A stretch of 33,256 nucleotides of DNA from a virus. Positions 2,551 to 33,256 of the stretch are shown one piece after another; the first letter of the stretch is position 1, and each line of letters opens with the position of its first letter. The notes beneath the pieces were generated by a model. It had not been told where the DNA came from and made no database searches. It saw only the letters and a list, made by a program, of their open reading frames with translations. Location of the stretch: positions 1 through 33,256 of IMG/VR virus record IMGVR_UViG_3300045988_130193. One strand, 5' to 3'. A program made the position numbers and the translations under genes.

Positions 2551-2939
2551 TATTTCCCTCCTAATTCTTTATAATATTTTGTAACACCACTAACCCAATA
2601 TTTATTATCGCCATTATCGTTAATTCCAATAGGGCAATATTTATGTTGTATTAATTCAATAGTATCAAGTCCCATATCAATGTAGTTATTCTTTAAATTA
2701 CTTATAAAGAAATCAATTCCTTTATCTAAATCTTCAAATACCATTAATGAGCCATTTCTAAAATTACCACCTACATTGTTTTTTTCTTTAAATGCTACTG
2801 ATGTATATTTGCCTGTTTCGTGCATTGATATAGCAACTGCTAATCTCCAATCAACACCATAACTATCTGCTACTTCCTTGATTTTGCAAGATACTTCATC
2901 TAAAGTACACTCACTCGATAATTCTTCTATTTTTTCCAA
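2550..2939 (-). CDS. Peptidoglycan hydrolase-like domain (glucosaminidase/lysozyme-like); probably the C-terminal part of a frameshifted gene
   Basis: AVAISMHETGKYTSVAFKEKNNVGGNF...FEDLDKGIDFFISNLKNNY resembles the glucosaminidase (FlgJ-type) motif ..ESGwG.S.la...NN.FG. The only start is a TTG without an RBS, and the frame stays open upstream to the A8 tract. Confidence 0.45.
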   Translation of the reverse strand: MEKIEELSSECTLDEVSCKIKEVADSYGVDWRLAVAISMHETGKYTSVAFKEKNNVGGNFRNGSLMVFEDLDKGIDFFISNLKNNYIDMGLDTIELIQHKYCPIGINDNGDNKYWVSGVTKYYKELGGK

Positions 2940-3195
2940 ACTCTCTAATTCGGCATTTTTTTTGCGTTTTAAGAGACTTTTCTTCTTCTTGGTCTATTTG
3001 TATTACTTCTTTACTTTCGTTTGTTTCTGCTTTAGCAATTAAGTCTGAGCATATAAATAAGTTACTATATACAAGCCCACACATAAAACCTATGAAAAAT
3101 ATTATCAAAAACTTTTTAGCCTTAACCCAAGCCTTGTTTATTTCTTTTTTTCTTTTATAACCTTTTCTAGTCATTACCTCTTTATTCTTTTTCAT
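2911..3195 (-). CDS. Membrane-anchored protein (single TM), probable N-terminal part of the hydrolase gene
   Basis: Basic N-terminus followed by a TM helix (FLIIFFIGFMCGLVYSNLFI). The 3' end overlaps the next ORF by 29 nt, just after an A8 run. Confidence 0.5.
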   Translation of the reverse strand: MKKNKEVMTRKGYKRKKEINKAWVKAKKFLIIFFIGFMCGLVYSNLFICSDLIAKAETNESKEVIQIDQEEEKSLKTQKKCRIREFGKNRRIIE

Positions 3196-3213
3196 CTTTA
3201 TTCTCCCTTTCTT

Positions 3214-3420
3214 CTATTTAAATTTCTTCTTAAAGTAATTATAATTTAAAGTAAACACTTCAATTGCTAATACTAATATAAATACTCCAAACCATGTCAA
3301 TGTCGTTAATTCCTTACTTATAAATGGATATACAAGTATCATATACATATATTTAAGTATAATTCCAGCACTTGCAAATAGTCCTAATGCATTACCTAAT
3401 GGTACGATTATCTTTTTCAT
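3214..3420 (-). CDS. Small membrane protein (2 TM)
   Basis: 68 aa with two hydrophobic helices and an RBS. Confidence 0.55.
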   Translation of the reverse strand: MKKIIVPLGNALGLFASAGIILKYMYMILVYPFISKELTTLTWFGVFILVLAIEVFTLNYNYFKKKFK

Positions 3421-3506
3421 TATATTCTTTCTCCTTTCTTAATTCCATAATATTCATATAAGTCTCTATCTAGATTGTCTTTTAACCACTTAATCATCTT
3501 TTTCAT
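3420..3506 (-). CDS. Tiny ORF, 28 aa (not in track)
   Basis: MKKMIKWLKDNLDRDLYEYYGIKKGERI. GGAGG RBS at 7 nt. TAATG coupling at both ends. Confidence 0.4.
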   Translation of the reverse strand: MKKMIKWLKDNLDRDLYEYYGIKKGERI

Positions 3507-3742
3507 TATTTTTCCTCCATTACTATTACTTCTATCTTTTTGCCTTTTTCGAACCATACAACTGGATATATATATTTATCATTTACCGAATGTATTGATT
3601 TCCTTAAACTTTTGAAATCAAATATTCTATTTAATGTTTTTTTGCTTACTTTTACTACTTGATATTTATTTCCTCTTTTGCTAACTAATTCTTCTTTTTT
3701 TGCATTTTTTAAATATTCTTTAATTTCTTTTAATGTTCTCAT
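3506..3742 (-). CDS. Hypothetical protein
   Basis: 78-aa ORF, translationally coupled. Confidence 0.5.
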   Translation of the reverse strand: MRTLKEIKEYLKNAKKEELVSKRGNKYQVVKVSKKTLNRIFDFKSLRKSIHSVNDKYIYPVVWFEKGKKIEVIVMEEK

Positions 3743-3894
3743 TATAATTCGCCTCCTATCATTAAAATATACTTAGGTGTATATTCTTTACCAGTTATCT
3801 TATTATAAACGAATACTATTTCATTACCACTTAACACTGGTATATAACCTTTTTTATTTACTAATTTTTCAACCTTTTTTATTTCTCTTTTCAT
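3742..3894 (-). CDS. Small ORF, 50 aa (not in track)
   Basis: MKREIKKVEKLVNKKGYIPVLSGNEIVFVYNKITGKEYTPKYILMIGGEL. GGAGG RBS. TAATG coupling at both ends. Confidence 0.5.
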   Translation of the reverse strand: MKREIKKVEKLVNKKGYIPVLSGNEIVFVYNKITGKEYTPKYILMIGGEL

Positions 3895-4139
3895 TATTGT
3901 TCCTCCTTTATAATTTCCCATCCATTTCTAAAATCAATATTTATTTTTCTTTCTTTAAAAACTTGTTTTATTTTATTCATGTTGTTTTGGAATGTTTCCA
4001 TGTTATAATTTATACATTTATCATTTCTATTGTATTTATAAATATCAAACCATTTATTATAATTTTGTTGATTATAATTAAGTTTTTCAATTAAAACCTC
4101 ATTATTTTCATTTCTTAAATTTTTTAAATATTCTTTCAT
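3894..4139 (-). CDS. Hypothetical protein (start trimmed to MKEYLKNL...)
   Basis: The track ORF starts at 4193, inside the promoter. The ATG at 4139 is preceded by AGGAGG. Confidence 0.55.
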   Translation of the reverse strand: MKEYLKNLRNENNEVLIEKLNYNQQNYNKWFDIYKYNRNDKCINYNMETFQNNMNKIKQVFKERKINIDFRNGWEIIKEEQ

Positions 4140-4170
4140 TTTTTGTCCTCCTTGTCTCATTGACAATATA

Positions 4171-4200
4171 ATTGTACCATAATGTATGTACATTTGTCAA
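4171..4200 (-). promoter_or_regulatory. Promoter of the early/accessory operon, just after the late terminator
   Basis: Minus strand reads TTGACA (4200..4195), 18 nt, TACAAT (4176..4171). The -10 is flanked by the inverted heptamers TTGACAA/TTGTCAA (4194..4200 and 4160..4166). Confidence 0.6.
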
Positions 4201-4261
4201 TACATTAAATGAAATTTATTTAGTTTTTTTACATTTTTTTCGCAAAACCTTATAAAATAAA

Positions 4262-4290
4262 GAAAAAAAGAGTTAATTTTTTTTAACTCT
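4262..4290 (-). terminator. Intrinsic terminator after the endolysin gene
   Basis: Minus-strand RNA has the stem agaguuaa/uuaacucu (4290..4283 with 4276..4269) followed by a U-run (4268..4262). The stem is AT-rich and therefore weak. Confidence 0.55.
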
Positions 4291-4309
4291 CTTTAATATT
4301 TCTGATTAT

Positions 4310-5221
4310 TTATTCAATTGTTATTTGAAATTTAGTAGCACTAACTCCATACACCCCAGCGTAGCCATCCTGTCCATTAGTCTTTTCATTATCATGTTGA
4401 TAAGGGTAATTATTAACTTTATATTTTGCTTTTTTGTATGGTCTAATATTATTTGGTGTGTAGTAATAGCATTCTACACAATCAATAACATTTACTCCAT
4501 CACCAGCAAAACCATTATTAAAGTCATTAATGTCACATCCAGTAACAAATGGCAACCAGCCTTTTCCTTTAATATGAACTCTATATTTAATAGAACCTTT
4601 ATCTACTCTAATAGCAAGTCCAGTTATAGGGCTATTCTCCCAACCGGCATAATTCTCTAGATTTTTAACTTCTGAAAGCCAGCCATGTTTTTGAGTTTTA
4701 ACTCTGTAATAAACATTAACTTCATTTGAAACAGGTTTATCTTCTAATTTAGCCCTTATCATATTTAAGAACCTATCCCAACCTTTATCCATTGTTCTAT
4801 GAGGGCAATATTTTTTATCAGGTGCATAATCATAATGTCTTTTTACTACTGATATATCCCAACCATATTTTTTAAGTAAATCTGCTATTAATTCTGCTGC
4901 ATTTTCTTCTGCTTTGTCAAATCTTTCTCCACCAGATTTAGAATAACATATTTCTATTGCTATAGTTGTTCTGTTTCCTGGACCATTTCCATCAGATGCA
5001 TGCCAACCATTCCTATCAAGTGGAAGTCCTTGCACTGCTTCTTTGTCATCAACAGCATAGTGGAAAGATGTTTCATAGTCATTATTTGTCATATATGCTA
5101 TTTCATTTCTTGCACTTGCATCATTAGCAGTATTATGTACTGTTATTCCTTTTGGTGTCATTTCATAAGGACATTTTATTCCCCATTTGCTTTCTGGTAC
5201 TAATTTTTTTATTATTTCCAT
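4310..5221 (-). CDS. Endolysin: N-acetylmuramoyl-L-alanine amidase (Amidase_2/PGRP fold) with a C-terminal cell-wall-binding domain
   Basis: GITVHNTAN...SFHYAVDD...AIEICY...VKRHYD...KYCPH are the Amidase_2 zinc and catalytic motifs. It is the last gene of the late operon, directly after the holin. Confidence 0.9.
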   Translation of the reverse strand: MEIIKKLVPESKWGIKCPYEMTPKGITVHNTANDASARNEIAYMTNNDYETSFHYAVDDKEAVQGLPLDRNGWHASDGNGPGNRTTIAIEICYSKSGGERFDKAEENAAELIADLLKKYGWDISVVKRHYDYAPDKKYCPHRTMDKGWDRFLNMIRAKLEDKPVSNEVNVYYRVKTQKHGWLSEVKNLENYAGWENSPITGLAIRVDKGSIKYRVHIKGKGWLPFVTGCDINDFNNGFAGDGVNVIDCVECYYYTPNNIRPYKKAKYKVNNYPYQHDNEKTNGQDGYAGVYGVSATKFQITIE

Positions 5222-5226
5222 ATTAT

Positions 5227-5418
5227 CTACTCTCCTTTTTTATTTAACATATTTATTATTAAATTCATTACAGCACTTATACCACCAGCAACAGCACCTA
5301 TTAATAAAGATTTAACTACCTGCATATTGCTGAAATCACTATTTGGTAAAGTTACTGCTAAAGCACCTAAGAAACCTTGAATAAAGGTTTTTCCTGCTCT
5401 TATCAAAATATCTTTCAT
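5227..5418 (-). CDS. Holin
   Basis: 63 aa with two TM helices. The N-terminus RAGKTFIQGFLGAL is typical of small Gram-positive phage holins. It lies immediately upstream of the amidase. Confidence 0.65.
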   Translation of the reverse strand: MKDILIRAGKTFIQGFLGALAVTLPNSDFSNMQVVKSLLIGAVAGGISAVMNLIINMLNKKGE

Positions 5419-5419
5419 A

Positions 5420-5626
5420 TTAACACCTCTCTTTCAATTCTTTAATATCTTCTTTTATATACTTAATATCATCTTCTAGGTGATATGTTCTTTCTATTAC
5501 CGTGTTGTGTTTATCTACCTTTTTTTCTAATTGCTCTATTCTATATTTGATTAATTTAATTCCAGTAAGTGAACCTATACAAGTTCCCAAAAAAGATAAC
5601 ACTGCTACTATTATACTTCCTATCAT
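5420..5626 (-). CDS. Membrane-anchored coiled-coil protein of the lysis cassette (XhlA-like?)
   Basis: N-terminal TM helix followed by the coiled coil RIEQLEKKVDKHNTVIERT, which is reminiscent of XhlA. However, the TM helix is at the opposite end to XhlA. Confidence 0.4.
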   Translation of the reverse strand: MIGSIIVAVLSFLGTCIGSLTGIKLIKYRIEQLEKKVDKHNTVIERTYHLEDDIKYIKEDIKELKERC

Positions 5627-5638
5627 ATTTCCTCCTTT

Positions 5639-5848
5639 TTATTTTCCTTTATCCATATCTTCTTCAACATATAATTCATTTAACTTACTATCTTCAAAGT
5701 TATCTGCTAAAAAGATAATTGAAGCATAATAAGGTTTATGTTCTTCTTCTGTTTCAGTAGCAGGTGTATAAACATCATTAATATCTCTTATTTGTTTGTT
5801 TTCATCTGCTATTAATATTTTCTTTTCACCATATTTTCTTATTTCCAT
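5639..5848 (-). CDS. Hypothetical acidic protein
   Basis: 69-aa ORF with an RBS. Confidence 0.5.
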   Translation of the reverse strand: MEIRKYGEKKILIADENKQIRDINDVYTPATETEEEHKPYYASIIFLADNFEDSKLNELYVEEDMDKGK

Positions 5849-5858
5849 GATACACCTC

Positions 5859-7019
5859 CTAACTTACTGTCCATCCTTTTTCGGTAGCCGATGATAATGC
5901 TTGTTGTCCTTCTTCTGACTTTAACTTTGCTAAATTAGTGCTTCCAAGTACAACTTTTTGAGATTGGCAACCTTTTGTCTTTATATCATATAAACTATTT
6001 AATATATTTATTATAGATGCCACTGTCAATTTTGAACAAGATGACAATGTTAAAGTATATGTATAATTATTTGCTGTTGATGTAGTTAAATATGCTTTGC
6101 CTAAATTCGGGAAACCACTACTATGCATTAGATTAGTCACACTAACAAATGTTCTATATAAAGATGTCGCACTACTCATATCAAGTAATGGGAGAGATTT
6201 TAAAGTAGAGCATGCAAAAAATGTGCTTTCAAAGGTTTTAACTTTTGAGGTGTCAATAGCAGGTATATTTTGCAAACTTCTGCAATCCTCAAACATACTT
6301 GTCATATTAGTTACTTTACTAGTATTTAATGGTGGTATAGTTTGCAAATTTGTGCATCCCTTAAACATACTTGTCATAGTTGTAACATTTGATGTATCAA
6401 TAAAGGGTATTGCTTGTAACGAATTGCAATTAGCAAACATTTTACTCATGTCGGCAACACCACTAGTGTCTAATAATGGTATAGTGGTAATTGCAGTACA
6501 ATATTGAAACATACTAGCGCAACTATCGCCAGACATTGTTATTGTATCTGGTATCTTTTTTATAATAGCATTAACACCATTTGTATATTGAGTATTTGTA
6601 GCACCCGCTATAGTTGGTTTGAAATAATCATTTATATCAACACCACTTGTTTCAACATTTACTTCACTATAGCCATCTAATTCATCATCAGATGCTTTAT
6701 ACACTCCATTTGAAGTAATGTTTTTGGTACCTAATTTCAACACTGGTATATTTACATTAGCAGTTTCTTTTTCTCTTACATTATAAATACCATTTTTAGT
6801 AATTTCTATATTCCCTGTAGGTATTATGTATTCATCAGGTATTTTATCTACTGTTACTTTAGATAAACCATCATAGTTTTTATCTGGTACTATTTCTTGC
6901 TTTTCTTTTGTAGGGATGACTTCTTTTTCTTGCATATTTGCCATAACTATTGGTGGAAATGAAAAGTTAGTTTTCAATTTAAACAAAATCGGTTTTTTTA
7001 TTAATTTTAACCTAAACAT
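5859..7019 (-). CDS. Tail fibre / receptor-binding protein with BspA-type (DUF285) leucine-rich repeats
   Basis: About 6 tandem repeats of the form DTSxVTxMxxMFxxCxxLqxIP. The N-terminus has 'NG.Y.V..y..v.VnV' fibre repeats. AAGGAGG RBS 9 nt before the ATG at 7019. Confidence 0.65.
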   Translation of the reverse strand: MFRLKLIKKPILFKLKTNFSFPPIVMANMQEKEVIPTKEKQEIVPDKNYDGLSKVTVDKIPDEYIIPTGNIEITKNGIYNVREKETANVNIPVLKLGTKNITSNGVYKASDDELDGYSEVNVETSGVDINDYFKPTIAGATNTQYTNGVNAIIKKIPDTITMSGDSCASMFQYCTAITTIPLLDTSGVADMSKMFANCNSLQAIPFIDTSNVTTMTSMFKGCTNLQTIPPLNTSKVTNMTSMFEDCRSLQNIPAIDTSKVKTFESTFFACSTLKSLPLLDMSSATSLYRTFVSVTNLMHSSGFPNLGKAYLTTSTANNYTYTLTLSSCSKLTVASIINILNSLYDIKTKGCQSQKVVLGSTNLAKLKSEEGQQALSSATEKGWTVS

Positions 7020-7358: not shown

Positions 7359-7889
7359 TTAATCTGTTGTTTTTGTATAGCAAATGGTAAAAGTGGCATC
7401 TCCCTCAATATCAGGAGTAACAACTGTTATTTGATTATCGTTTTCTTTGCTTAAATAATAATTATCATATCTTACAGAAGTAAAATATTGTCTATTATCT
7501 CCATAAGCAAGGACTAAACTTATAGAAACAACCTTGTCTAAATTAGTTATACCTGTCGCTACAGTGGGGTAGCCGTCTTTTGGTACGGTACCAGTTACAA
7601 CTTTCCTATATATAGGCTTGCCATTTGTCCATTTACCTATTACTTGCTCTGATGTTGAATAATTAAACTTGTTATTTACTTCATTAATAGAATTTACTAA
7701 ATTATTTTTATTAGTAGTATTTAAACTTGATAAATTTCCTATTGCATTTGAATTATTAGTAGTGTTATCATCATTTGTATTAACTACTTCTTTTATTTCA
7801 TTTAAATCGCTAGCATTTACCTTGTTAATATCTGCTATGTCAGAATTAACATTTAATGCTACCTTATCTGTATATGTTATTTTACTCAT
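7359..7889 (-). CDS. Tail fibre protein, paralog B
   Basis: Contains IGNLSSLNTTNKNNLVNSINE, IGKWTNGKPIYRKVV and ...YTKTTD. These motifs are shared with 7900..8433. Confidence 0.6.
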   Translation of the reverse strand: MSKITYTDKVALNVNSDIADINKVNASDLNEIKEVVNTNDDNTTNNSNAIGNLSSLNTTNKNNLVNSINEVNNKFNYSTSEQVIGKWTNGKPIYRKVVTGTVPKDGYPTVATGITNLDKVVSISLVLAYGDNRQYFTSVRYDNYYLSKENDNQITVVTPDIEGDATFTICYTKTTD

Positions 7890-7899
7890 ATTTTACCTC

Positions 7900-8433
7900 C
7901 TAATCTGTTGTTTTTGTATATTTTAAGGTTATGTGTTTAGTCCAATTGTTACCCCAAGCACCATTTGCATAAAAGTTTATATTTGTAGGATTTACATAAC
8001 AATAAACTTTATCAGTAAGATTACCAACATATCCTATTAAAGGGAAATTATAAGATAAATAATCACTTGAACCTATGTTTGCCTCCATAAATGAAGCACC
8101 GAAATCTATAAAAATATTTTTAGCATTTTCTATATTGTGTGCTATTGATGTTGTTTCATTCGTTTTTATTGTTGAAGTAAATGTTATTGTCTTTCTATAC
8201 AAAGGCTTGCCATCTATCCATTTTCCAATAATTTTTTCAGTAGTAGAATATTCTTCAAGTCTTGCTTCATTTATAGCACCTACTATACTACTTTTATTAG
8301 TAGTATTTAATTGTGTTAAATCACCAATCTTTGTATCAATACTATTTCCACTTTTAAAACTAAAATTAATATTATCTGTACCGCTTATTTCATTTATTTG
8401 TATGTCGGTACTATCTTGCATATATTTTGCCAT
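7900..8433 (-). CDS. Tail fibre protein, paralog A
   Basis: Contains IGDLTQLNTTNKSSIVGAINE, IGKWIDGKPLYRKTI and ...YTKTTD. The G.L..L.T..K..lV.AINE motif is common in Firmicutes phage fibres. Confidence 0.6.
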   Translation of the reverse strand: MAKYMQDSTDIQINEISGTDNINFSFKSGNSIDTKIGDLTQLNTTNKSSIVGAINEARLEEYSTTEKIIGKWIDGKPLYRKTITFTSTIKTNETTSIAHNIENAKNIFIDFGASFMEANIGSSDYLSYNFPLIGYVGNLTDKVYCYVNPTNINFYANGAWGNNWTKHITLKYTKTTD

Positions 8434-10443: not shown

Positions 10444-11934
10444 CTAACTTGTAAATGGAGCATTTAGTATGCAATTTAAGACATTATCTCCAATAGCAGT
10501 AATCTCACTAATAGTCAAATTATTATATATAATATTTGCCGAGTTTTCTATATCAACATTTCTTGTTATACTTTCGCCCTCTTGAATATTGCCACTTGCT
10601 TTATTTCTTTGATTATCAAACCAATTTATTGCTCTTTCACTATTGAACGAACTTGATAATTCATAAGTATAGAATATCTTTTCTTGGTCTGTTGTATTTA
10701 TTACTTTTATTTCTTTCCTTTTTACCATATAATCTTGTATTAAATCATCAATAGGGGCATCGAAGTGTACTATTTGCCCGATATTGTAAATATCTTTATC
10801 ATCAGTTACTACCTTTAAATTAACTTCTGCACTACCTTTATATTTAATATATGATTGTCCTACCTTATCAAGTTCTGCACTTGAAAGAACATCGTTTCTA
10901 TTCTCATATCTTGCTATAATTCCTTTTCTTCCTGTTTGATTTGCTATTCTATCTACTTCATCATTATTATACACGATTTGTCTGCCTTTTACAAGGGGTT
11001 GATAAACTACTTGTATTTGAGTACCAGCAATATAACTAGCATCTGTTTCTATTTGATTTTTCCCTGGTGTATAATAGAAATCTGCATCTATTCCTATATC
11101 TTTATTTGTTTTTGTTGTAAATGTCTTAGGAACACCATTTACAGATATACTTGCTATTGAACCTATATTTGAACTTGTTAAGAAGTTATTGTCATATCCA
11201 TTAGCAATTAATATTTCTGTATAATTTATACTAGCATATACTTCATCTGACTGCATTATTTGTTTATTTCTATAATCTCTACTTCCATAATTGAAAGAAA
11301 TATCATTTATATTATTTTCTTCAAACCAAGCAACATTATATTCAATATTCTTTCCTCTTGTCATTAATGTAGGGTCATAAAAGTCAATAGCAACCTTATC
11401 TTCATCAATAAGCCTTGTAAACCATTTAGAGCCTGTTATATCTGCTAAATATTGAAATACATCATAGGCAGTCTTATTCTGTGTTGAATAAGCACCAATT
11501 ATATCATCAGCACCAAATATATTGATATTCCCTAGCACGAAGCCATAATCTTTAATGGCATCTATTATCATCTCTATTGCTTCTGTTATGGTCTTATTAC
11601 TTATAACAAAGTCTAAAGTCTCACCCTCACTAAGTAAAGTCTTAAAGTCTAATATTTGCAAACTACAAAAGTGAGGATATCTAGGATTAAGACTTATATT
11701 ACCAGAATTTTTTACTACACCGCAAAAAACAAGTACATCATCTTTATATATCTTGCATTTTGAATAATCTTTTGGATAATAAAATCTTGAAGTATAATTT
11801 TTGTCATTTTCCCAACTTTTTGGATAGCAATTATTAAGAATGGTGGAGGAAGTAGTAAGTATTTCCTCTGTTATGGTAAACTCTTTATTACATACTACTT
11901 CTTCATCGTTTATTAACATTTTTAATCTACTCAT
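10444..11934 (-). CDS. Tail structural protein at the distal-tail (Dit) position
   Basis: 496 aa. Its start overlaps the tape-measure stop. The call is positional only. Confidence 0.5.
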   Translation of the reverse strand: MSRLKMLINDEEVVCNKEFTITEEILTTSSTILNNCYPKSWENDKNYTSRFYYPKDYSKCKIYKDDVLVFCGVVKNSGNISLNPRYPHFCSLQILDFKTLLSEGETLDFVISNKTITEAIEMIIDAIKDYGFVLGNINIFGADDIIGAYSTQNKTAYDVFQYLADITGSKWFTRLIDEDKVAIDFYDPTLMTRGKNIEYNVAWFEENNINDISFNYGSRDYRNKQIMQSDEVYASINYTEILIANGYDNNFLTSSNIGSIASISVNGVPKTFTTKTNKDIGIDADFYYTPGKNQIETDASYIAGTQIQVVYQPLVKGRQIVYNNDEVDRIANQTGRKGIIARYENRNDVLSSAELDKVGQSYIKYKGSAEVNLKVVTDDKDIYNIGQIVHFDAPIDDLIQDYMVKRKEIKVINTTDQEKIFYTYELSSSFNSERAINWFDNQRNKASGNIQEGESITRNVDIENSANIIYNNLTISEITAIGDNVLNCILNAPFTS

Positions 11935-22922: not shown

Positions 22923-23263
22923 TATAATTCATCTATTGTTAAATTGTATTTATATTCAAATAATTTCTTCTTTAATTTGTAAGTTTCTGTTCTAACTCCT
23001 TTGGTATCTTCTACTACCCATTTATCTTTTAATAAGTCAAAGTAATAGAAATCTGCTATATAGTAAATAGGTCTTATCTTTTTGCCTTTAGCATTTGTAT
23101 ATCCCTCTTGAAGCAAGAATTTTTTTTGTAGTTCTAGATTACAGATATAATCAGTGCTTTCTAATAATTCAAGGTCTTTATATCTCTGCATTTCTTTTTT
23201 ACTATCGAACTTTATTCCTTTATAGATAACTTTAGTATTGTGGTATTTATTCTTTATTATCAT
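22922..23263 (-). CDS. DUF1064-family nuclease-like protein
   Basis: NKYHNTKVIYKGIKFDSKKEMQRYKDLELLE...YIADFYY...VEDTKG matches the DUF1064 pattern (NKY.akK...dGi.FDSk.Ea.ry..L ... Y.aDF ... EDvKG). Confidence 0.7.
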   Translation of the reverse strand: MIIKNKYHNTKVIYKGIKFDSKKEMQRYKDLELLESTDYICNLELQKKFLLQEGYTNAKGKKIRPIYYIADFYYFDLLKDKWVVEDTKGVRTETYKLKKKLFEYKYNLTIDEL

Positions 23264-23633
23264 ATAACACACTCTCCAAATTACTGTTATCTATTACTTC
23301 CATTTTAATAGTAGGCATTACTCTCATTTCTCCTGTTGTTTCAACTTTATCAGTTTGTCCTAGATATTGTTTACCTAGAAATATAGCCATTGTAGGATTT
23401 TTTTCTGCTAATTTCCATTGAGTTCTACGAAGTGATATTTGGCCTTTTCCTCTTTTTATCTTGAATACTTCCGAAAATGTAGTTCCATAAGTTTTTTTGC
23501 ACCAACTATTTAAAGTATCATCTTCGACATCAAAGAAATCACATATTTCTAATAAAGTACATTGAAGCCCACACAAATTTTCAAATTGTTTCTTATCAAT
23601 TTTATCTTGTGCTGGCGTATCTCCTTTTACCAT
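23247..23633 (-). CDS. terS: Terminase small subunit (HTH type)
   Basis: N-terminal HTH, followed by RGKGQISLRRTQWKLAEKNPTMAIFLGKQYLGQTD. The 'gn.tm.IflgKn.LGq.D' block recurs in proteins annotated as TerS in Firmicutes phages (from memory). Confidence 0.55.
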   Translation of the reverse strand: MVKGDTPAQDKIDKKQFENLCGLQCTLLEICDFFDVEDDTLNSWCKKTYGTTFSEVFKIKRGKGQISLRRTQWKLAEKNPTMAIFLGKQYLGQTDKVETTGEMRVMPTIKMEVIDNSNLESVLYDNKE

Positions 23634-23649
23634 AATATCACTTCCTTTT

Positions 23650-24309
23650 TTATTTTAATTTTTTGCTTAAATATAAAAATGGTGTATCGCATATTGCTAT
23701 CATAATTTCTAATATAGTTGTTGTTGTAGCAATAGCAAATATTGTTTTTAAATCATATATACCTATGAATGCAAATATTGTAAAAAAATAATTTTCTAAA
23801 CAATTGCTTATTATTGTTGCTATATTATTTCTTACCCACATTTTATTTGGTATCTTCTTCTTTATTTTTTCAAATACTATTATATCTAACATATTGCTTA
23901 AATAACACATTACTATGCTTGATATACTTATTCTTAAATTAAATGTGAATATATTTTTTAGACTATCATTTACCATATCTAAATTATTTGGCTTAAATAA
24001 TAAACTAAATTGTGTTGCTATTGTAAACAATATTACTGATACTATTCCTATATTTATTGCTTTTCTGCTTTCTTTTGCACTATATTTTTCACTTAAAATA
24101 TCTGTTGCTAGAAATGTACTTGCAAACAATATGTTTCCTAATGTTGCTTGTAAACCTAATATATTAATATTTTTAGCAACTAATATATTTGCTGTCACCA
24201 AAGCAACTGCTAACCATACATACAACCCTTCTTTTTTAAATATTTTTTCTATTATTATTTCTATACTAAAACATAACACTATTCCTAATATACCTAATAA
24301 TATATTCAT
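23650..24309 (-). CDS. yhhQ: YhhQ/VUT-family queuosine-precursor (preQ0/preQ1) transporter
   Basis: Polytopic membrane protein. FASTFLATDILSEKY, LSNMLDIIVFEKIKK and VRNNIATIISNCLENYFFTIFAF align with E. coli YhhQ FIFLATDLTVRIF, LGQILDVHVFNRLRQ and TASTLFGNVSDTLAFFFIAF. Confidence 0.85.
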   Translation of the reverse strand: MNILLGILGIVLCFSIEIIIEKIFKKEGLYVWLAVALVTANILVAKNINILGLQATLGNILFASTFLATDILSEKYSAKESRKAINIGIVSVILFTIATQFSLLFKPNNLDMVNDSLKNIFTFNLRISISSIVMCYLSNMLDIIVFEKIKKKIPNKMWVRNNIATIISNCLENYFFTIFAFIGIYDLKTIFAIATTTTILEIMIAICDTPFLYLSKKLK

Positions 24310-24352
24310 AATATCACTCCTTAATTTTTTTATTGTAGGTTTTGGATAACTA

Positions 24353-25090
24353 CTAATCTTTGTTTACATTTTTCCATTTCATATAATAATGTTCTTGCAT
24401 CTGCATACCTAGTTTAAAACTTTCTGCCATTACTATATATCTTTTTGTTTTACTAAATTCTTTACTTACTTTTCTATTTCCTATTCTTCCATAAATACTT
24501 GCCTGTTTCCAACTGCTACTATCTACAAAATCAAAAGGAACTTCATCTAATATTTTTCTCCTTGTCATACCTAAACAATGTACTTTACAATTATATTTTC
24601 TTGCATACTTTAAAAACATCATATATTGATTATCTTTTATATCCTCATTTTTAAAACCCGTTATTGCAATTACTCTGCCTGCATAGTCTTTACACATTTT
24701 TTTATATTCTTCTATTCCTCTATTTTTATGCCACACAGGAATAATTTTATTTGATACACTTTCAAGTATCTTTCTTAATTCTAAAACTTTTTCATAACCA
24801 ATTATGTTGTCCACATCCATTTCAAAATAACCAACAATTTTTTCATTATCATTATTTTTTATAAACTCTGCATATTTTTTTGTATATTCTTCCCAATTAA
24901 CTTTTTTGCCTTTTTGGAATGAATGTGCTCCACTATCGATTATCATTAATTCACTTTTATTTAAAATAATTTCAAATATATCTTGTTTTAAATAATAATA
25001 TGAACACAATATATATTTATATTTAGGTATTAATTCATTTATTTTATTAAATTCTCCACTTGCTTCTAAACCACTTAAAAATACTTTCAT
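24353..25090 (-). CDS. dpdA: DpdA-like DNA-guanine transglycosylase (TGT superfamily)
   Basis: MIIDSGAHSF resembles the TGT 'TDSGGFQ' motif, and LGMT...FDFVDSSSW resembles the C-terminal Asp motif of DpdA. It is adjacent to yhhQ. Start taken at the ATG 25090, 1 nt after the ParB-like stop. Confidence 0.6.
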   Translation of the reverse strand: MKVFLSGLEASGEFNKINELIPKYKYILCSYYYLKQDIFEIILNKSELMIIDSGAHSFQKGKKVNWEEYTKKYAEFIKNNDNEKIVGYFEMDVDNIIGYEKVLELRKILESVSNKIIPVWHKNRGIEEYKKMCKDYAGRVIAITGFKNEDIKDNQYMMFLKYARKYNCKVHCLGMTRRKILDEVPFDFVDSSSWKQASIYGRIGNRKVSKEFSKTKRYIVMAESFKLGMQMQEHYYMKWKNVNKD

Positions 25091-25091
25091 T

Positions 25092-25601
25092 TTAATCTTT
25101 TGGTTGCTCCGCAATTTCTACTTTTTTAAAGTGAATTTTACTGTCTATATGATGGCAATGTGGGCATTCTAGTATATCTTTTTCAGGTTCTTCGTATTTT
25201 TCATCGGATAAATCGTCAACATTACTCCAGTCTATTTCATCGGTATTAAAATCAAACACACTCATATCAATATCTAAAATACTATCTAATTCTTCATCTA
25301 ACTTAGTATAGTCCCACATTGATTTTTCACTAACTTTATTATCTGCTAATCTAAATGCTTTTACTTGTTCTTCAGTTAAATCATCAGCAATTATACAAGG
25401 AATATCTTTTATTCCTAATTCTTTACTTGCTTTTATTCTTGTATGTCCTGCAATTATAACATTATCTTTGTCTATTACAATAGGTACTTTAAATCCAAAT
25501 TCTTTAATTGAATTTTTAACATATTCAACTGCTTCATCATTTATTCTAGGATTGTTATCATAAGGTATTAACTCATTTATATTTTTATATATTATTTCCA
25601 T
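25092..25601 (-). CDS. ParB N-terminal-domain (ParB/Srx) protein with a C-terminal CxxC motif
   Basis: LIPYDNNPR...IKEFGFKVPIVIDKDNVIIAGHTRIKASKELG...FRLADNK is the ParBc signature. There is no methylase domain. CPHCHH lies near the C-terminus. Confidence 0.8.
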   Translation of the reverse strand: MEIIYKNINELIPYDNNPRINDEAVEYVKNSIKEFGFKVPIVIDKDNVIIAGHTRIKASKELGIKDIPCIIADDLTEEQVKAFRLADNKVSEKSMWDYTKLDEELDSILDIDMSVFDFNTDEIDWSNVDDLSDEKYEEPEKDILECPHCHHIDSKIHFKKVEIAEQPKD

Positions 25602-30660: not shown

Positions 30661-30864
30661 TTACCACTTATAAGTCAACATTAGATATAATATATAAATT
30701 AATATCGTTGCTAAGACTAATAAATTAATTATAATCAAATATGCTTTTATATCTTCTTGTTTATTCTTTTTTAGTGTTCTTAATTGTTCTCTTTCAGTCT
30801 TACTTGTAGGGAATTCTTTTTTTAATTTCCACATTTGATATTTACTTATCTTTTCCGGTTTCAT
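30661..30864 (-). CDS. Small membrane protein
   Basis: 67 aa with a C-terminal TM helix. Confidence 0.45.
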   Translation of the reverse strand: MKPEKISKYQMWKLKKEFPTSKTEREQLRTLKKNKQEDIKAYLIIINLLVLATILIYILYLMLTYKW

Positions 30865-31370
30865 TTTATCCTCCTAAAATCTTTGCAAGCCTCTGTATTT
30901 TTCGTTATTCTTATTTTTCTATATCTACAATAATATGTTGGTATCGAATTACTTTTTACTTGCCTTTTTTCTAATAATCTGCAATTTTTACATCTATCTT
31001 TTATTTCTTTTTTCTCTTCTGATATTATAATTCTTTCTCTAAGGTCGTTTTTCTTATCATATTTAAGTGTTTTCATTAACTCGGTAATACTTAATATATT
31101 CTCTTTTTTTACTAAATATTCGGCGCAATAGGTATGTATTTCATTTCTTAATGAAGTATCTTTGCCATTATCTAATGCTTGATGACATTTAATACATAAC
31201 ATAACCCCATTCTCTTTACAGCCTTTTCCACCATGTGCTCTTGATAAGAATATATGTGCTATTTGCAAAGCCCCATTATTTCCACAAAATACACACCTAT
31301 TATTATCTCTTTTTTTTATATACTTTCTTGTTTCTTTATCAAACTCGCAAAATTGACTTCTTATACTCAT
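30861..31370 (-). CDS. HNH endonuclease
   Basis: CVFCG...AHIF..(GG)..NGVMLCIKCH is the HNH beta-beta-alpha-metal motif. There is an extra C-terminal Cys cluster. Confidence 0.8.
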   Translation of the reverse strand: MSIRSQFCEFDKETRKYIKKRDNNRCVFCGNNGALQIAHIFLSRAHGGKGCKENGVMLCIKCHQALDNGKDTSLRNEIHTYCAEYLVKKENILSITELMKTLKYDKKNDLRERIIISEEKKEIKDRCKNCRLLEKRQVKSNSIPTYYCRYRKIRITKNTEACKDFRRIK

Positions 31371-32382: not shown

Positions 32383-32696
32383 TATTTAATTTTGATTAAT
32401 AATGAACTTTTAACTGGTGTGAATTCTACATAAGTATCATATAAATCAGGTAAATCTTTCTTGAACTTTGCTGTTCTAAATGTTTCTCTTTCTGTTGGTG
32501 CTTTATAAGTAATACTAATATTTTCATTTTCTAATTTTAAGATATTTTTCTCTTCCATTTCTTTTAATAAGATTTCTCTTATCTTTTCTTTTTTCTCTTT
32601 TAATGCTTTTTCTTCCTTGTCAATTAAAATTAATTCATCTGCTATAGTTTGTCTTAATTTAAATTCTTCCATTTCCTTTACTATTAAATTATTCAT
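32382..32696 (-). CDS. Hypothetical coiled-coil protein of the recombination module
   Basis: 104 aa, start/stop-coupled between erf and the nuclease. Confidence 0.5.
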   Translation of the reverse strand: MNNLIVKEMEEFKLRQTIADELILIDKEEKALKEKKEKIREILLKEMEEKNILKLENENISITYKAPTERETFRTAKFKKDLPDLYDTYVEFTPVKSSLLIKIK

Positions 32697-33253
32697 TATT
32701 TGTCCTCCTTTTTTGCAAATAGTTTACTTAATATTTCACTTGCTTTATTGATAGACATATCTTCTAGTCTTTCAAGATTATTTACTTCTAATAATTTTGT
32801 TAAGTTTTCTCCTTGATAATATTTAGATAATAATTCTATTTGCTTAGGGCTTGCCTTTTTATCTTCTTTTTCTTCTTTACTTTGAATATTAGTAGTATCA
32901 CTATCTTTATTATCATCTATTCCAAATAAACCGTTTAAAGCATATTTTCGAGCATAACTACTACTTGCTCCAGTTATTTGACTTCCATCCATTCCTTTTT
33001 TTGTTTCTTCTTCTCTTGCATAAGCACTATTACTTATAGTTGCCTCGCTTTCAGTATCAATAAGTGTTGCTGTTGCTTTTATGTAGTATCTATTTCCTAT
33101 ATATTGAAGTTCATCACTTATTGTTAACACTACCTTTTCTTTTTTTAATAAAGGTTTTACTGCCTCTAAAATGTCCTCGCAACTTCTGTAAGCATATTTA
33201 CCGAAATCATTGTATTGTCCTTTTGGTGCTTTTAATTCTTGCTGAATATTCAT
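32696..33253 (-). CDS. erf: Erf-family single-strand annealing protein
   Basis: KYAYRSCEDILEAVKPLL...GASSSYARKYALNGLFGIDDNKD are ERF-family motifs. A likelier start (MKEINIKL-MNIQQ..., GGAG RBS) lies 24 nt upstream, beyond the window end. It is visible at 138..140 because of the terminal overlap. Confidence 0.85.
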   Translation of the reverse strand: MNIQQELKAPKGQYNDFGKYAYRSCEDILEAVKPLLKKEKVVLTISDELQYIGNRYYIKATATLIDTESEATISNSAYAREEETKKGMDGSQITGASSSYARKYALNGLFGIDDNKDSDTTNIQSKEEKEDKKASPKQIELLSKYYQGENLTKLLEVNNLERLEDMSINKASEILSKLFAKKEDK

Positions 33254-33256
33254 TAA
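33138..33256. repeat. Terminal overlap, identical to 1..119
   Basis: Exact 119-nt identity with the window start. Confidence 0.9.

Follow-up and report, generated by a model that had tools for sequence, protein, structure and literature searches.

A ParB-like protein, a phage-type DpdA and a queuosine-precursor transporter as a candidate salvage-fed 7-deazaguanine DNA modification cassette

Introduction

The modification of phage DNA with 7-deazaguanines is a known anti-restriction strategy. Here we analyse a viral genome of 33,256 nt (IMG/VR record IMGVR_UViG_3300045988_130193, positions 1 to 33,256; the window in what follows being this whole stretch), in which three consecutive genes encode a small ParB-like protein, a DpdA-like protein and a YhhQ-family transporter. 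A preliminary description, made from the sequence alone, had recognised these genes as a co-directional group on the minus strand just upstream of terS, and had proposed that they form a DpdA-type module for 7-deazaguanine modification, fed by import of a precursor rather than by synthesis in the phage. Both the layout (Table 1) and the assignment of enzyme and transporter were borne out by our analysis, and we consider it probable that the three proteins together effect a salvage-fed 7-deazaguanine modification of the phage DNA. The argument is carried by the identity of the enzyme, by its persistent pairing with the ParB-like protein and, above all, by the exchange of supply genes beside this pair in related loci.

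Some elements of this picture are known already, namely phage DpdA itself, yhhQ in some phage gene clusters and the salvage of precursors by phages carrying DpdA alone (PMC6884629, PMC5699537, PMC7544227). What appears to be new is a two-component (ParB plus DpdA) phage 7-deazaguanine module with interchangeable supply, of which the window presents the minimal, salvage-only form. The preliminary description was aware of no characterisation of the three-gene arrangement. This statement has to be narrowed: salvage by DpdA-only phages, and YhhQ in some of them, are published (PMC6884629, PMC5699537), whereas neither a phage ParB-DpdA pair nor the swapping of supply modules was described in the literature covered by our full-text searches, which was incomplete, so that an earlier description is possible.

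A phage-type DpdA with conserved catalytic-type residues

The central enzyme of the cassette matches the family phrog_887 (E 6e-37) and, in tblastn searches, the DpdA proteins of phages 7-11, BCD7, BRock and Sonali (E 1e-19 to 8e-6), as well as that of phage phiFN37. Salmonella phage 7-11 has been named among the DpdA phages (PMC6884629), and the dpdA gene of the Bacillus phage BCD7 adjoins FolE, QueC, QueD and QueE. Comparison of a 103-sequence alignment with the DpdA of Escherichia phage CAjan by hhalign gave a probability of 99.2% (E 9.4e-20 over 183 columns), with the DSGA sequence, His residues and the DSSSW sequence lining up with the motifs of the CAjan enzyme, the deletion of which abolishes dPreQ0 (PMC7544227). 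The two proteins differ in length (245 versus 306 amino acids in the window and CAjan, respectively) and share ~23% identity.

An AlphaFold2 (AF2) model of the protein (predicted local distance difference test, pLDDT, 93; predicted template modelling score, pTM, 0.90) retrieved with Foldseek from BFVD phage models labelled as 'queuine tRNA-ribosyltransferases' or DpdA (E 1e-25 to 1e-6, TM-score up to 0.91). It depicts a minimal TIM barrel, without the zinc-binding subdomain and the RNA-binding extensions of TGTs. The DSG (residues 52-54) and DSSSW (190-194) motifs, to which the preliminary description had drawn attention, belong to a set of residues that are invariant or nearly so in alignments of 18 and 103 homologues, namely D52-S-G-A, E90/D92/D94, H121, H171 and D190-S-S-S-W. 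Bacterial DpdA depends on two Asp residues that serve as acid/base and as nucleophile, and on Asp/His residues that recognise the base, the essential positions being Asp95, Asp130, His181 and Asp256 (PMC10164549); by analogy, the invariant residues of the phage protein would correspond to these in kind. On sequence and model, then, the protein is a phage-type DpdA, a predicted DNA-guanine transglycosylase of the TGT superfamily.

The ParB-like protein

The first gene of the cassette encodes, as previously proposed, a stand-alone protein of the ParB/Srx type with a GHTR box (G52-H53-T54-R55). It yielded the expected match to Pfam ParB_N (PF02195; E 1.6e-8, 34.9 bits against a cut-off of 26.3) and also matches phrog_620 (E 2.3e-55) and, with phmmer, the ParB proteins of M. 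xanthus and B. subtilis (E 1.6e-5). Its NCBIfam matches are of the ParB/Noc type only, and the model of canonical partition ParB, TIGR00180, scores below its cut-off (44.3 bits, cut-off 58.45) and over no more than positions 18-101 of 186. Neither a methylase domain nor a helix-turn-helix (HTH) was detected in the protein. The sole PADLOC match, to the ParB-MTase model (MTase_II), covers N-terminal positions 14-147 of 436, and outside such cassettes the protein is most closely related to the N-terminal domain of ParB::DNA-methylase fusions in phages (phrog_498, PADLOC MTase_II); at the nucleotide level, the gene is similar to methylase genes of Streptococcus and Lactobacillus phages.

The polypeptide consists of a ParB-N domain with NPR, GHTR and DN boxes, an acidic linker and a C-terminal CPxC motif (C146-P147-x-C149), and the NPR box, G52-H53-x-R55, D87-N88 and C146-P147-x-C149 are invariant in sets of 48 and 46 DpdA-linked homologues. 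Its N-domain is modelled by AF2 with a pLDDT of ~90 and no HTH, and Foldseek placed Noc, ParB CTPase domains, KorB, PadC and sulfiredoxin (Srx) at the top of its matches; the domain also superposes on SerK. According to this model the protein has the ParB CTPase/Srx fold without an HTH, and the binding of a nucleoside triphosphate (NTP) can be predicted.

It had been suggested that this protein could be a minimal partner of the DpdB type. With respect to homology the suggestion fails: we found in it neither the DGQQR motif nor the C-terminal alpha-helical (SspE-like) domain of DpdB, nor a match to any model of DndB/DpdB type in PADLOC or NCBIfam. By sequence it falls outside the DpdB family and within that clade of ParB-N proteins which is elsewhere found fused to DNA methylases of phages. 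With respect to function the suggestion retains its force, the adjacency to DpdA in ~95% of related loci and the apparent translational coupling making it plausible that the protein is a functional analogue of DpdB.

The CPxC motif deserves separate mention. Located after the acidic linker (window positions 25130-25165, residues 146-158), it usually takes the form CPxCHHxDxxxHFKKV in DpdA-linked ParB-like proteins. Since the His residues following CPxC are not universal, the two cysteines alone cannot form a full intramolecular zinc site, and the motif may bind a partner or contribute to a metal site that is shared (hook-like).

The transporter and the absence of a synthesis pathway

The third gene unambiguously encodes, by its sequence matches, a queuosine-precursor transporter of the YhhQ/COG1738 family. 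It reaches E 1.7e-34 with Pfam Vut_1 and 151.2 bits with the NCBIfam model TIGR00697, 'queuosine precursor transporter' (cut-off 50.95). Pfam scans covering the early as well as the late part of the genome detected no folE, queC, queD or queE, and unfiltered searches with hidden Markov models (HMMs) over all 105 six-frame open reading frames (ORFs) gave at best 6.3 bits for preQ0 synthesis genes, in agreement with what had been noted before on the sequence alone.

A constant pair with an exchangeable supply

Homologues of the window DpdA are numerous, amounting to 1,587 in a collection clustered at 90% and to 1,531 clusters at 50% identity, and at least 502 stretches in IMG/VR match it. Contigs bearing such genes have been binned into metagenome-assembled genomes of Clostridia (Acutalibacteraceae, Lachnospiraceae, Clostridiaceae and Anaerobutyricum). 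We collected 152 related loci with 120 unique DpdA sequences, and HMMs that had been built from sequences verified in this analysis were used to score the six-frame ORFs of these loci. Linkage to ParB was counted in 108 loci with enough upstream sequence; for the content of the downstream slot we relied on 108 loci in which the sequence extends at least 2.5 kb beyond DpdA.

The gene order of the window cassette recurs in more than 100 independent contigs, and the arrangement is therefore more than chance. In 91 of the 108 loci the ParB-like ORF ends no more than 150 nt from the start of DpdA, and in ~103 (~95%) it lies within ~800 nt. The gaps between the two genes are mostly -4 or -1 nt, the usual form being a 4-nt ATGA overlap; in the window, as already recorded, the ParB stop codon TAA (25094-25092) is followed after one base by the DpdA ATG at 25090. 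Such overlap of stop and start suggests, as far as the sequence can indicate, that the two genes are translationally coupled. The pair is kept from 100% down to ~35% DpdA identity and in phages that differ in their terminase, portal and replication modules, and the nearest ParB homologues, including a short form of 156 amino acids, adjoin DpdA and Vut_1.

While the upstream neighbour of DpdA is constant, the downstream one is freely swapped. A gene for the supply of 7-deazaguanine is present within 5 kb of DpdA in 107 of the 108 loci, with a single locus having none. It is YhhQ alone in 61 loci, QueT as a separate gene in 16 and as part of an in-frame DpdA-QueT ORF in four, the de novo preQ0 pathway (QueC/QueD/QueE with FolE) in 15, and QueC together with YhhQ in 11. 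QueT (PF06177; Pfam E 1e-26 to 1e-39) is a queuosine-precursor transporter unrelated to YhhQ. In loci L073-L076 the order is ParB, DpdA, QueC, QueD, QueE, FolE and terminase, which is a full preQ0 pathway without QueF. That a non-homologous transporter or a whole pathway can occupy the same slot beside an unchanging ParB-DpdA pair implies that this slot supplies 7-deazaguanine to DpdA, and the lack of QueF in the de novo variants makes preQ0 the most likely base for this clade. From gene content, the exchange of supply modules strongly supports a salvage-fed 7-deazaguanine modification of DNA, and with it the earlier proposal that the module of the window would be fed by import.

Variants among the related loci

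The eleven loci with QueC and YhhQ are without QueD, QueE and FolE. In L124, for example, QueC (4122-4832) and YhhQ (5192-5851) follow ParB-DpdA, and L129, L135, L138, L140 and L149 are of the same kind. This combination suggests either that 7-carboxy-7-deazaguanine (CDG) is imported and then converted to preQ0, or that a QueC-like enzyme makes another derivative.

The in-frame DpdA-QueT ORFs of 413-414 amino acids (DpdA at residues 1-243, QueT at 264-408; L099:7001-8242, L100:7001-8242, L102:7001-8245 and L103:7001-8245) could be true fusions, programmed frameshifts or indel errors. Because in sister contigs of this lineage the two genes overlap out of frame or abut, we do not take the fusions as proven; a true fusion would be unusual in tethering a soluble DNA enzyme to a membrane importer. 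Two further proteins, P0244 (DpdA plus QueT) and P0321 (DpdA plus Vut_1), were considered as Rosetta-stone fusions and rejected as such, their sequences suggesting read-through or frameshift at overlapping genes, and they serve as evidence of adjacency only. A hybrid of another sort occurs in L053 (9788-10639), where an ORF of 283 amino acids joins the first ~70 residues of ParB-N, which extend slightly beyond the GHTR box, to a DpdA missing its first ~34 residues and is followed by QueT. This ParB-N::DpdA hybrid, which belongs to a prophage in the genome of an isolate, seems to have arisen by deletion.

In some loci additional genes are inserted between DpdA and the transporter. These encode a DUF6884 protein (L077:3921-4325), a 144-residue unknown protein in phiFN37 (L001:8805-9239) and a short-chain dehydrogenase, which occurs alone (L014:3906-4261) or is followed by a 276-residue unknown protein (L051:4581-6086). 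Their products could carry out further modification of the inserted base.

The ends of the pair vary as well. Long N-terminal extensions of DpdA homologues were checked for ParB domains and none was found; in P0322, P0255, P0291, P0363 and P0304 the first beta-strand motif (MKIFLSG or MNIYLAG and the like) is repeated two to five times in the extensions, which gives the impression of a tandem duplication at the 5' end of the gene. Upstream of DpdA in L113 (6236-6814) and L118 (6538-7050) there is an ORF with a ParB-like 'P-I-L-V-D...V-I-L-G' stretch, which has no GHxR box and is negative with the ParB HMM, and which may be a degenerate ParB partner.

Comparison with known modification systems

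The clusters of the CAjan/9g type with DpdA1 (Hutinet 2019, Kot 2020, Cui 2023) share with the window a homologous transglycosylase, for which post-replicative guanine exchange is the expected chemistry, a placement in a late or DNA-metabolism gene cluster of a siphovirus-type genome and, in CAjan, a YhhQ-family gene. They encode FolE, QueD, QueE and QueC, with YhhQ being dispensable, whereas the window phage has no synthesis pathway and the transporter is its only phage-encoded supply. A further difference is that the CAjan cluster contains no ParB-like gene, as judged from a Pfam scan of its unknown genes. The DpdA-only phages (Orion, 7-11; PMC6884629) are closer to the window in having DpdA without preQ0 synthesis genes; for these, reliance on host preQ0 or on uptake was proposed by the authors, and some phages encode YhhQ (PMC6884629, PMC5699537). 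In these reports YhhQ does not correlate with any phage group and a ParB partner is unmentioned (PMC6884629, PMC5699537, PMC7544227), whereas in the family of the window a transporter (YhhQ or QueT) and a ParB-like gene are near-obligatory neighbours of DpdA.

The bacterial Dpd system of Salmonella Montevideo likewise combines a DNA transglycosylase of TGT fold with a protein of the ParB superfamily, the ATPase DpdB, which is required by bacterial DpdA and whose NTPase activity is needed for preQ0 insertion (PMC10164549), and some dpd islands contain yhhQ (PMC5699537). The differences lie in the partner and in the surroundings. DpdB is of a DndB-like clade with DGQQR and a C-terminal helical domain, whereas the window protein is a classical ParB-N/Srx protein with GHTR and a CPxC tail; moreover, the window genome is without the restriction genes DpdC-K and its DpdA does not match the bacterial model NF041059.

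Closer to the ParB-like protein itself are systems in which a small ParB-fold protein of a phage, lacking a DNA-binding domain, stands beside, or is fused to, an enzyme for post-replicative base modification. The thymine dioxygenase 5mYOX176, described in 2026, requires such a protein, ParB176, specifically on double-stranded DNA (PMC13229309), and phage methylases are widely found as fusions with ParB-N, which bind CTP, ATP or GTP (PMC12704722). A ParBc protein of unknown function also accompanies the phage cytosine carboxymethyltransferase CmoX (PMC12783734). The window differs from the 5mYOX and methylase systems in that the putative partner enzyme is a transglycosylase, and in that its ParB-like protein ends in a short CPxC motif and not in the C-terminal dimerisation domain of ParB.

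The only deposited phage genome that we found with the same arrangement is that of the Fusobacterium phage phiFN37 (OR492271), in which genes for a ParB-like protein, DpdA (with a 4-nt overlap), a small ORF and YhhQ lie upstream of the packaging genes. Its DpdA is 32% identical to that of the window over 98% of the length. The module is auto-annotated only, and a full-text literature search found no discussion of it. Unlike the window, phiFN37 has a genome of 85 kb, the extra ORF between DpdA and YhhQ, and three further ParB-like genes.

The stretches of phiFN37 (locus L001) that relate to its four ParB-like proteins are 2772-4560, 7519-8004 and 10922-11410, and one of the ParB-like genes comes directly after a PAPS-reductase-like gene, with which it may form a second pair of a ParB-like protein and an enzyme acting on DNA.

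Evidence for and against a modifying function

Several observations weigh against the proposed function, and they touch on all three proteins. As regards the enzyme, the preliminary description had expected a match to Pfam TGT (PF01702), which was not obtained; the protein matches no Pfam family at E<=0.01. Nor did it match the bacterial DpdA model NF041059 at E<=0.1 or any PADLOC model at E<=1, and its best matches among PDB folds are weak, Cap10 (TGT-like; E 3.5e-4, TM-score 0.62) being followed by the TGT 4gg9, at E ~1e-3 to 1e-4 and among generic TIM barrels. The validated DpdA of CAjan is, however, likewise Pfam-negative, which renders the missing PF01702 match uninformative for phage DpdAs. 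HMMER searches against PDB sequences, both with the single sequence (phmmer) and with profiles of 18 or 103 homologues, returned noise only and no TGT or DpdA. We have dropped these failed Pfam and PDB sequence routes as evidence against DpdA, given the Pfam-negative CAjan enzyme and the clear results of hhalign and Foldseek. The label of dpdA and dpdB orthologues for the window genes was rejected, since NCBIfam NF041059 and PADLOC gave no matches.

The resemblance to Cap10, a TGT-like protein-deazaguanylating enzyme (bioRxiv 10.1101/2025.04.06.647259), bears on the possibility that the target is not DNA, and that the cassette serves a tRNA modification of the queuosine type or a protein conjugation like that by Cap10 of type IV CBASS, possibly as a counter-defence. 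Roles in tRNA modification were proposed for phage TGT-like genes in the early literature (PMC5699537), and some relatives of the window pair the enzyme with a QueC-family protein only, which is superficially like Cap9/Cap10. Yet the profile match to CAjan DpdA (E 9.4e-20) is far stronger than the fold match to Cap10, and the constant partner has a DNA-associated ParB fold, no tRNA genes were found in the complete genome, and the enzyme is devoid of just those zinc-binding and RNA-binding parts which characterise TGTs. An RNA or protein target is on this evidence highly improbable.

As regards the supply, the transporter scores 56.8 bits on NF008406, the equivalog model for the E. coli type of preQ0/preQ1 transporter with a cut-off of 252, so that its substrate may be any of preQ0, preQ1, queuine or CDG, and substrates differ among YhhQ family members. 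Deletion of yhhQ from CAjan was without effect, although CAjan also makes preQ0 itself (PMC7544227). A more general concern comes from the DpdA-only phages that have been tested, among which Orion showed no modification and Salmonella phage 7-11 contained dADG at 0.02% of G (PMC6884629). On this precedent the DpdA of the window could be a diverged or effectively silent singleton, in a phage whose DNA carries no or only trace modification and whose cassette has another role or none. Functional divergence of singleton DpdAs was explicitly raised in the same study (PMC6884629), and DpdA3, DpdA4 and the DpdA1 of phiSM were inactive in E. coli (PMC10516641). Such silence is difficult to reconcile with catalytic-type residues that are invariant over a family of ~1,500 clusters at 50% identity, and, unless 7-deazaguanine flows through DpdA, it is hard to see why 107 of 108 loci should retain a transporter or a full pathway; the window phage, unlike Orion, also provides a supply route. 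We therefore regard a silent DpdA as improbable.

As regards the partner, the phage DpdAs of 9g, nt-1 and VH7D work alone in E. coli (PMC6884629, PMC10516641), from which it follows that a partner is not generally required, and NTP-site mutants of the 5mYOX protein ParB176 are still functional (PMC13229309), so that an NTP-driven mechanism is not assured. A mirror-tree comparison gave r 0.55 for ParB and DpdA, only modestly above the 0.41 for DpdA and YhhQ; co-evolution by this measure was too weak to be used as an argument and was dropped.

It is conceivable, then, that DpdA and YhhQ do modify DNA and that the ParB-like gene only travels with them, having a function in anti-defence, in the regulation of timing or, next to terS, as an accessory in packaging or at a pac site. 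Phages very commonly carry ParB-N proteins and fusions, often upstream of terminase genes, and ParBs (27%) and terminases (19.2%) are both counted with the domains that co-occur most frequently with 5mYOX genes of phages (PMC13229309). Only one of the four ParB-like genes of phiFN37 adjoins DpdA, and L113, L114 and L118 have no detectable ParB upstream. Against mere co-travelling stands the adjacency in ~95% of loci, with overlap of stop and start across different backbones, while the other neighbour of DpdA is freely exchanged. In addition, the nearest ParB homologues are all DpdA-linked, members of this ParB-N clade that are not beside DpdA are fused to a methylase, which is another DNA-modifying enzyme, and there are experimental precedents for DNA-modifying enzymes that depend on a ParB-type protein (PMC10164549, PMC13229309). 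A passive ParB-like gene is in our view unlikely, and the participation of all three proteins in a salvage-fed modification remains the reading that we prefer.

Proposed mode of action and its implications

Under the preferred reading the cassette would operate as one late-expressed module, which after replication swaps some of the guanines in the double-stranded phage DNA for 7-deazaguanine. YhhQ in the host membrane would import a free queuosine precursor, most likely preQ0 and possibly preQ1 or another 7-deazaguanine, and DpdA would flip out target guanines and exchange the base, with D52, by alignment, as the putative acid/base and D190 as the putative nucleophile. The coupled stop and start would allow the ParB-like protein to be made in a fixed proportion to DpdA, of which it would be the cognate accessory, that is, a dimerising or clamping factor with an NTP-binding fold that enables DpdA to act on double-stranded DNA or targets it there. 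Its role would resemble those of DpdB beside bacterial DpdA, of the activator of 5mYOX176 and of the ParB-N domain in phage methylase fusions. The likely gain would be that restriction enzymes of the host, or CRISPR nucleases, are kept from attacking the DNA of the progeny.

The DpdA-only phages have so far been unexplained, and the cassette offers for them the hypothesis of an own precursor importer combined with a dedicated ParB-fold partner. If the ParB-like protein were required, this would explain the inactivity of several phage DpdAs expressed alone, and it would add the transglycosylases as a third class of enzymes, after methylases and dioxygenases, to the ParB-fold-driven base modifications of phages. 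Should the modification depend on salvage, the resistance of the phage to host restriction would be tied to queuosine-family micronutrients of the gut. The DpdA family concerned is abundant and yet almost absent from cultured phages, for which phiFN37 provides a cultured entry point.

A bolder form of this proposal would be that a large and hitherto undescribed clade of gut and rumen phage DpdAs is obligately two-component, requiring a CPxC-tailed clamp or activator of ParB fold, regulated by NTP, for action on double-stranded DNA, and that the enzyme is fed by, and sometimes fused to, an importer (DpdA-QueT), such that in the gut the external availability of queuosine-family micronutrients governs the anti-restriction modification. 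In this extended form we hold the proposal to be doubtful, although possible.

Genome context

The genome carries a direct terminal repeat of 119 bp, bases 1-119 being identical to 33138-33256, and the identical ends indicate that the window is a complete, circularly assembled phage genome of ~33.1 kb. All its genes are on the minus strand and its G+C content is ~28%. An identical contig of 33,256 bp and a near-identical scaffold of 33,192 bp are present in public metagenomes, and close relatives are contigs from human gut metagenomes; megablast of the whole genome against deposited phages gave only a tape-measure fragment of 64-99 bp and no close cultured relative.

Table 1. Features of the cassette and its downstream boundary in the window
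Feature	Coordinates	Strand	Basis
ParB/Srx-fold protein, 169 aa	25092..25601	-	Pfam ParB_N, phrog_620, AF2/Foldseek
Phage-type DpdA (predicted), 245 aa	24353..25090	-	phrog_887, tblastn, hhalign, AF2/Foldseek
ParB stop / DpdA start junction, TAA-A-ATG	25088..25094	-	sequence reading
YhhQ/COG1738 transporter, 219 aa	23650..24309	-	Vut_1, TIGR00697
Small terminase subunit terS, downstream cassette boundary	23247..23633	-	phrog_309 E 1e-8, phrog_606 E 2e-6

In the order of transcription, the early part comprises an ERF recombinase, a PD-(D/E)XK nuclease, an HTH protein, an HNH endonuclease and small ORFs. The middle part runs from the ParB-like gene, DpdA and YhhQ through terS, a DUF1064 resolvase-like protein and terL to the head and tail genes, and the end is made up of an amidase (lysis), a DnaD-like protein and SSB. 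The position of the cassette directly ahead of the packaging genes is also conserved in related loci. A GGGAGG ribosome-binding site precedes the start of the ParB-like gene at 25601; YhhQ follows DpdA after 43 nt with its own AAGGAG site, and terS follows YhhQ after 16 nt with a site similar to AAGGAG. Scans for promoters and terminators inside the gene block gave nothing above chance level, and the cassette and the packaging genes are on these grounds read as one transcription unit.

Some features of the window are apart from the cassette. A stand-alone HNH endonuclease gene (30861-31370) lies in the early region, with no link to the cassette, and the replication genes are divided between the genome ends, with ERF at 32696-33253, SSB at 164-466 and the DnaD-like gene at 541-1308. 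The tail-fibre region includes, again with no link to the cassette, a gene for a DUF285 (BspA-like repeat) protein (5859-7019), a type of protein typical of low-GC Firmicutes and Mollicutes.

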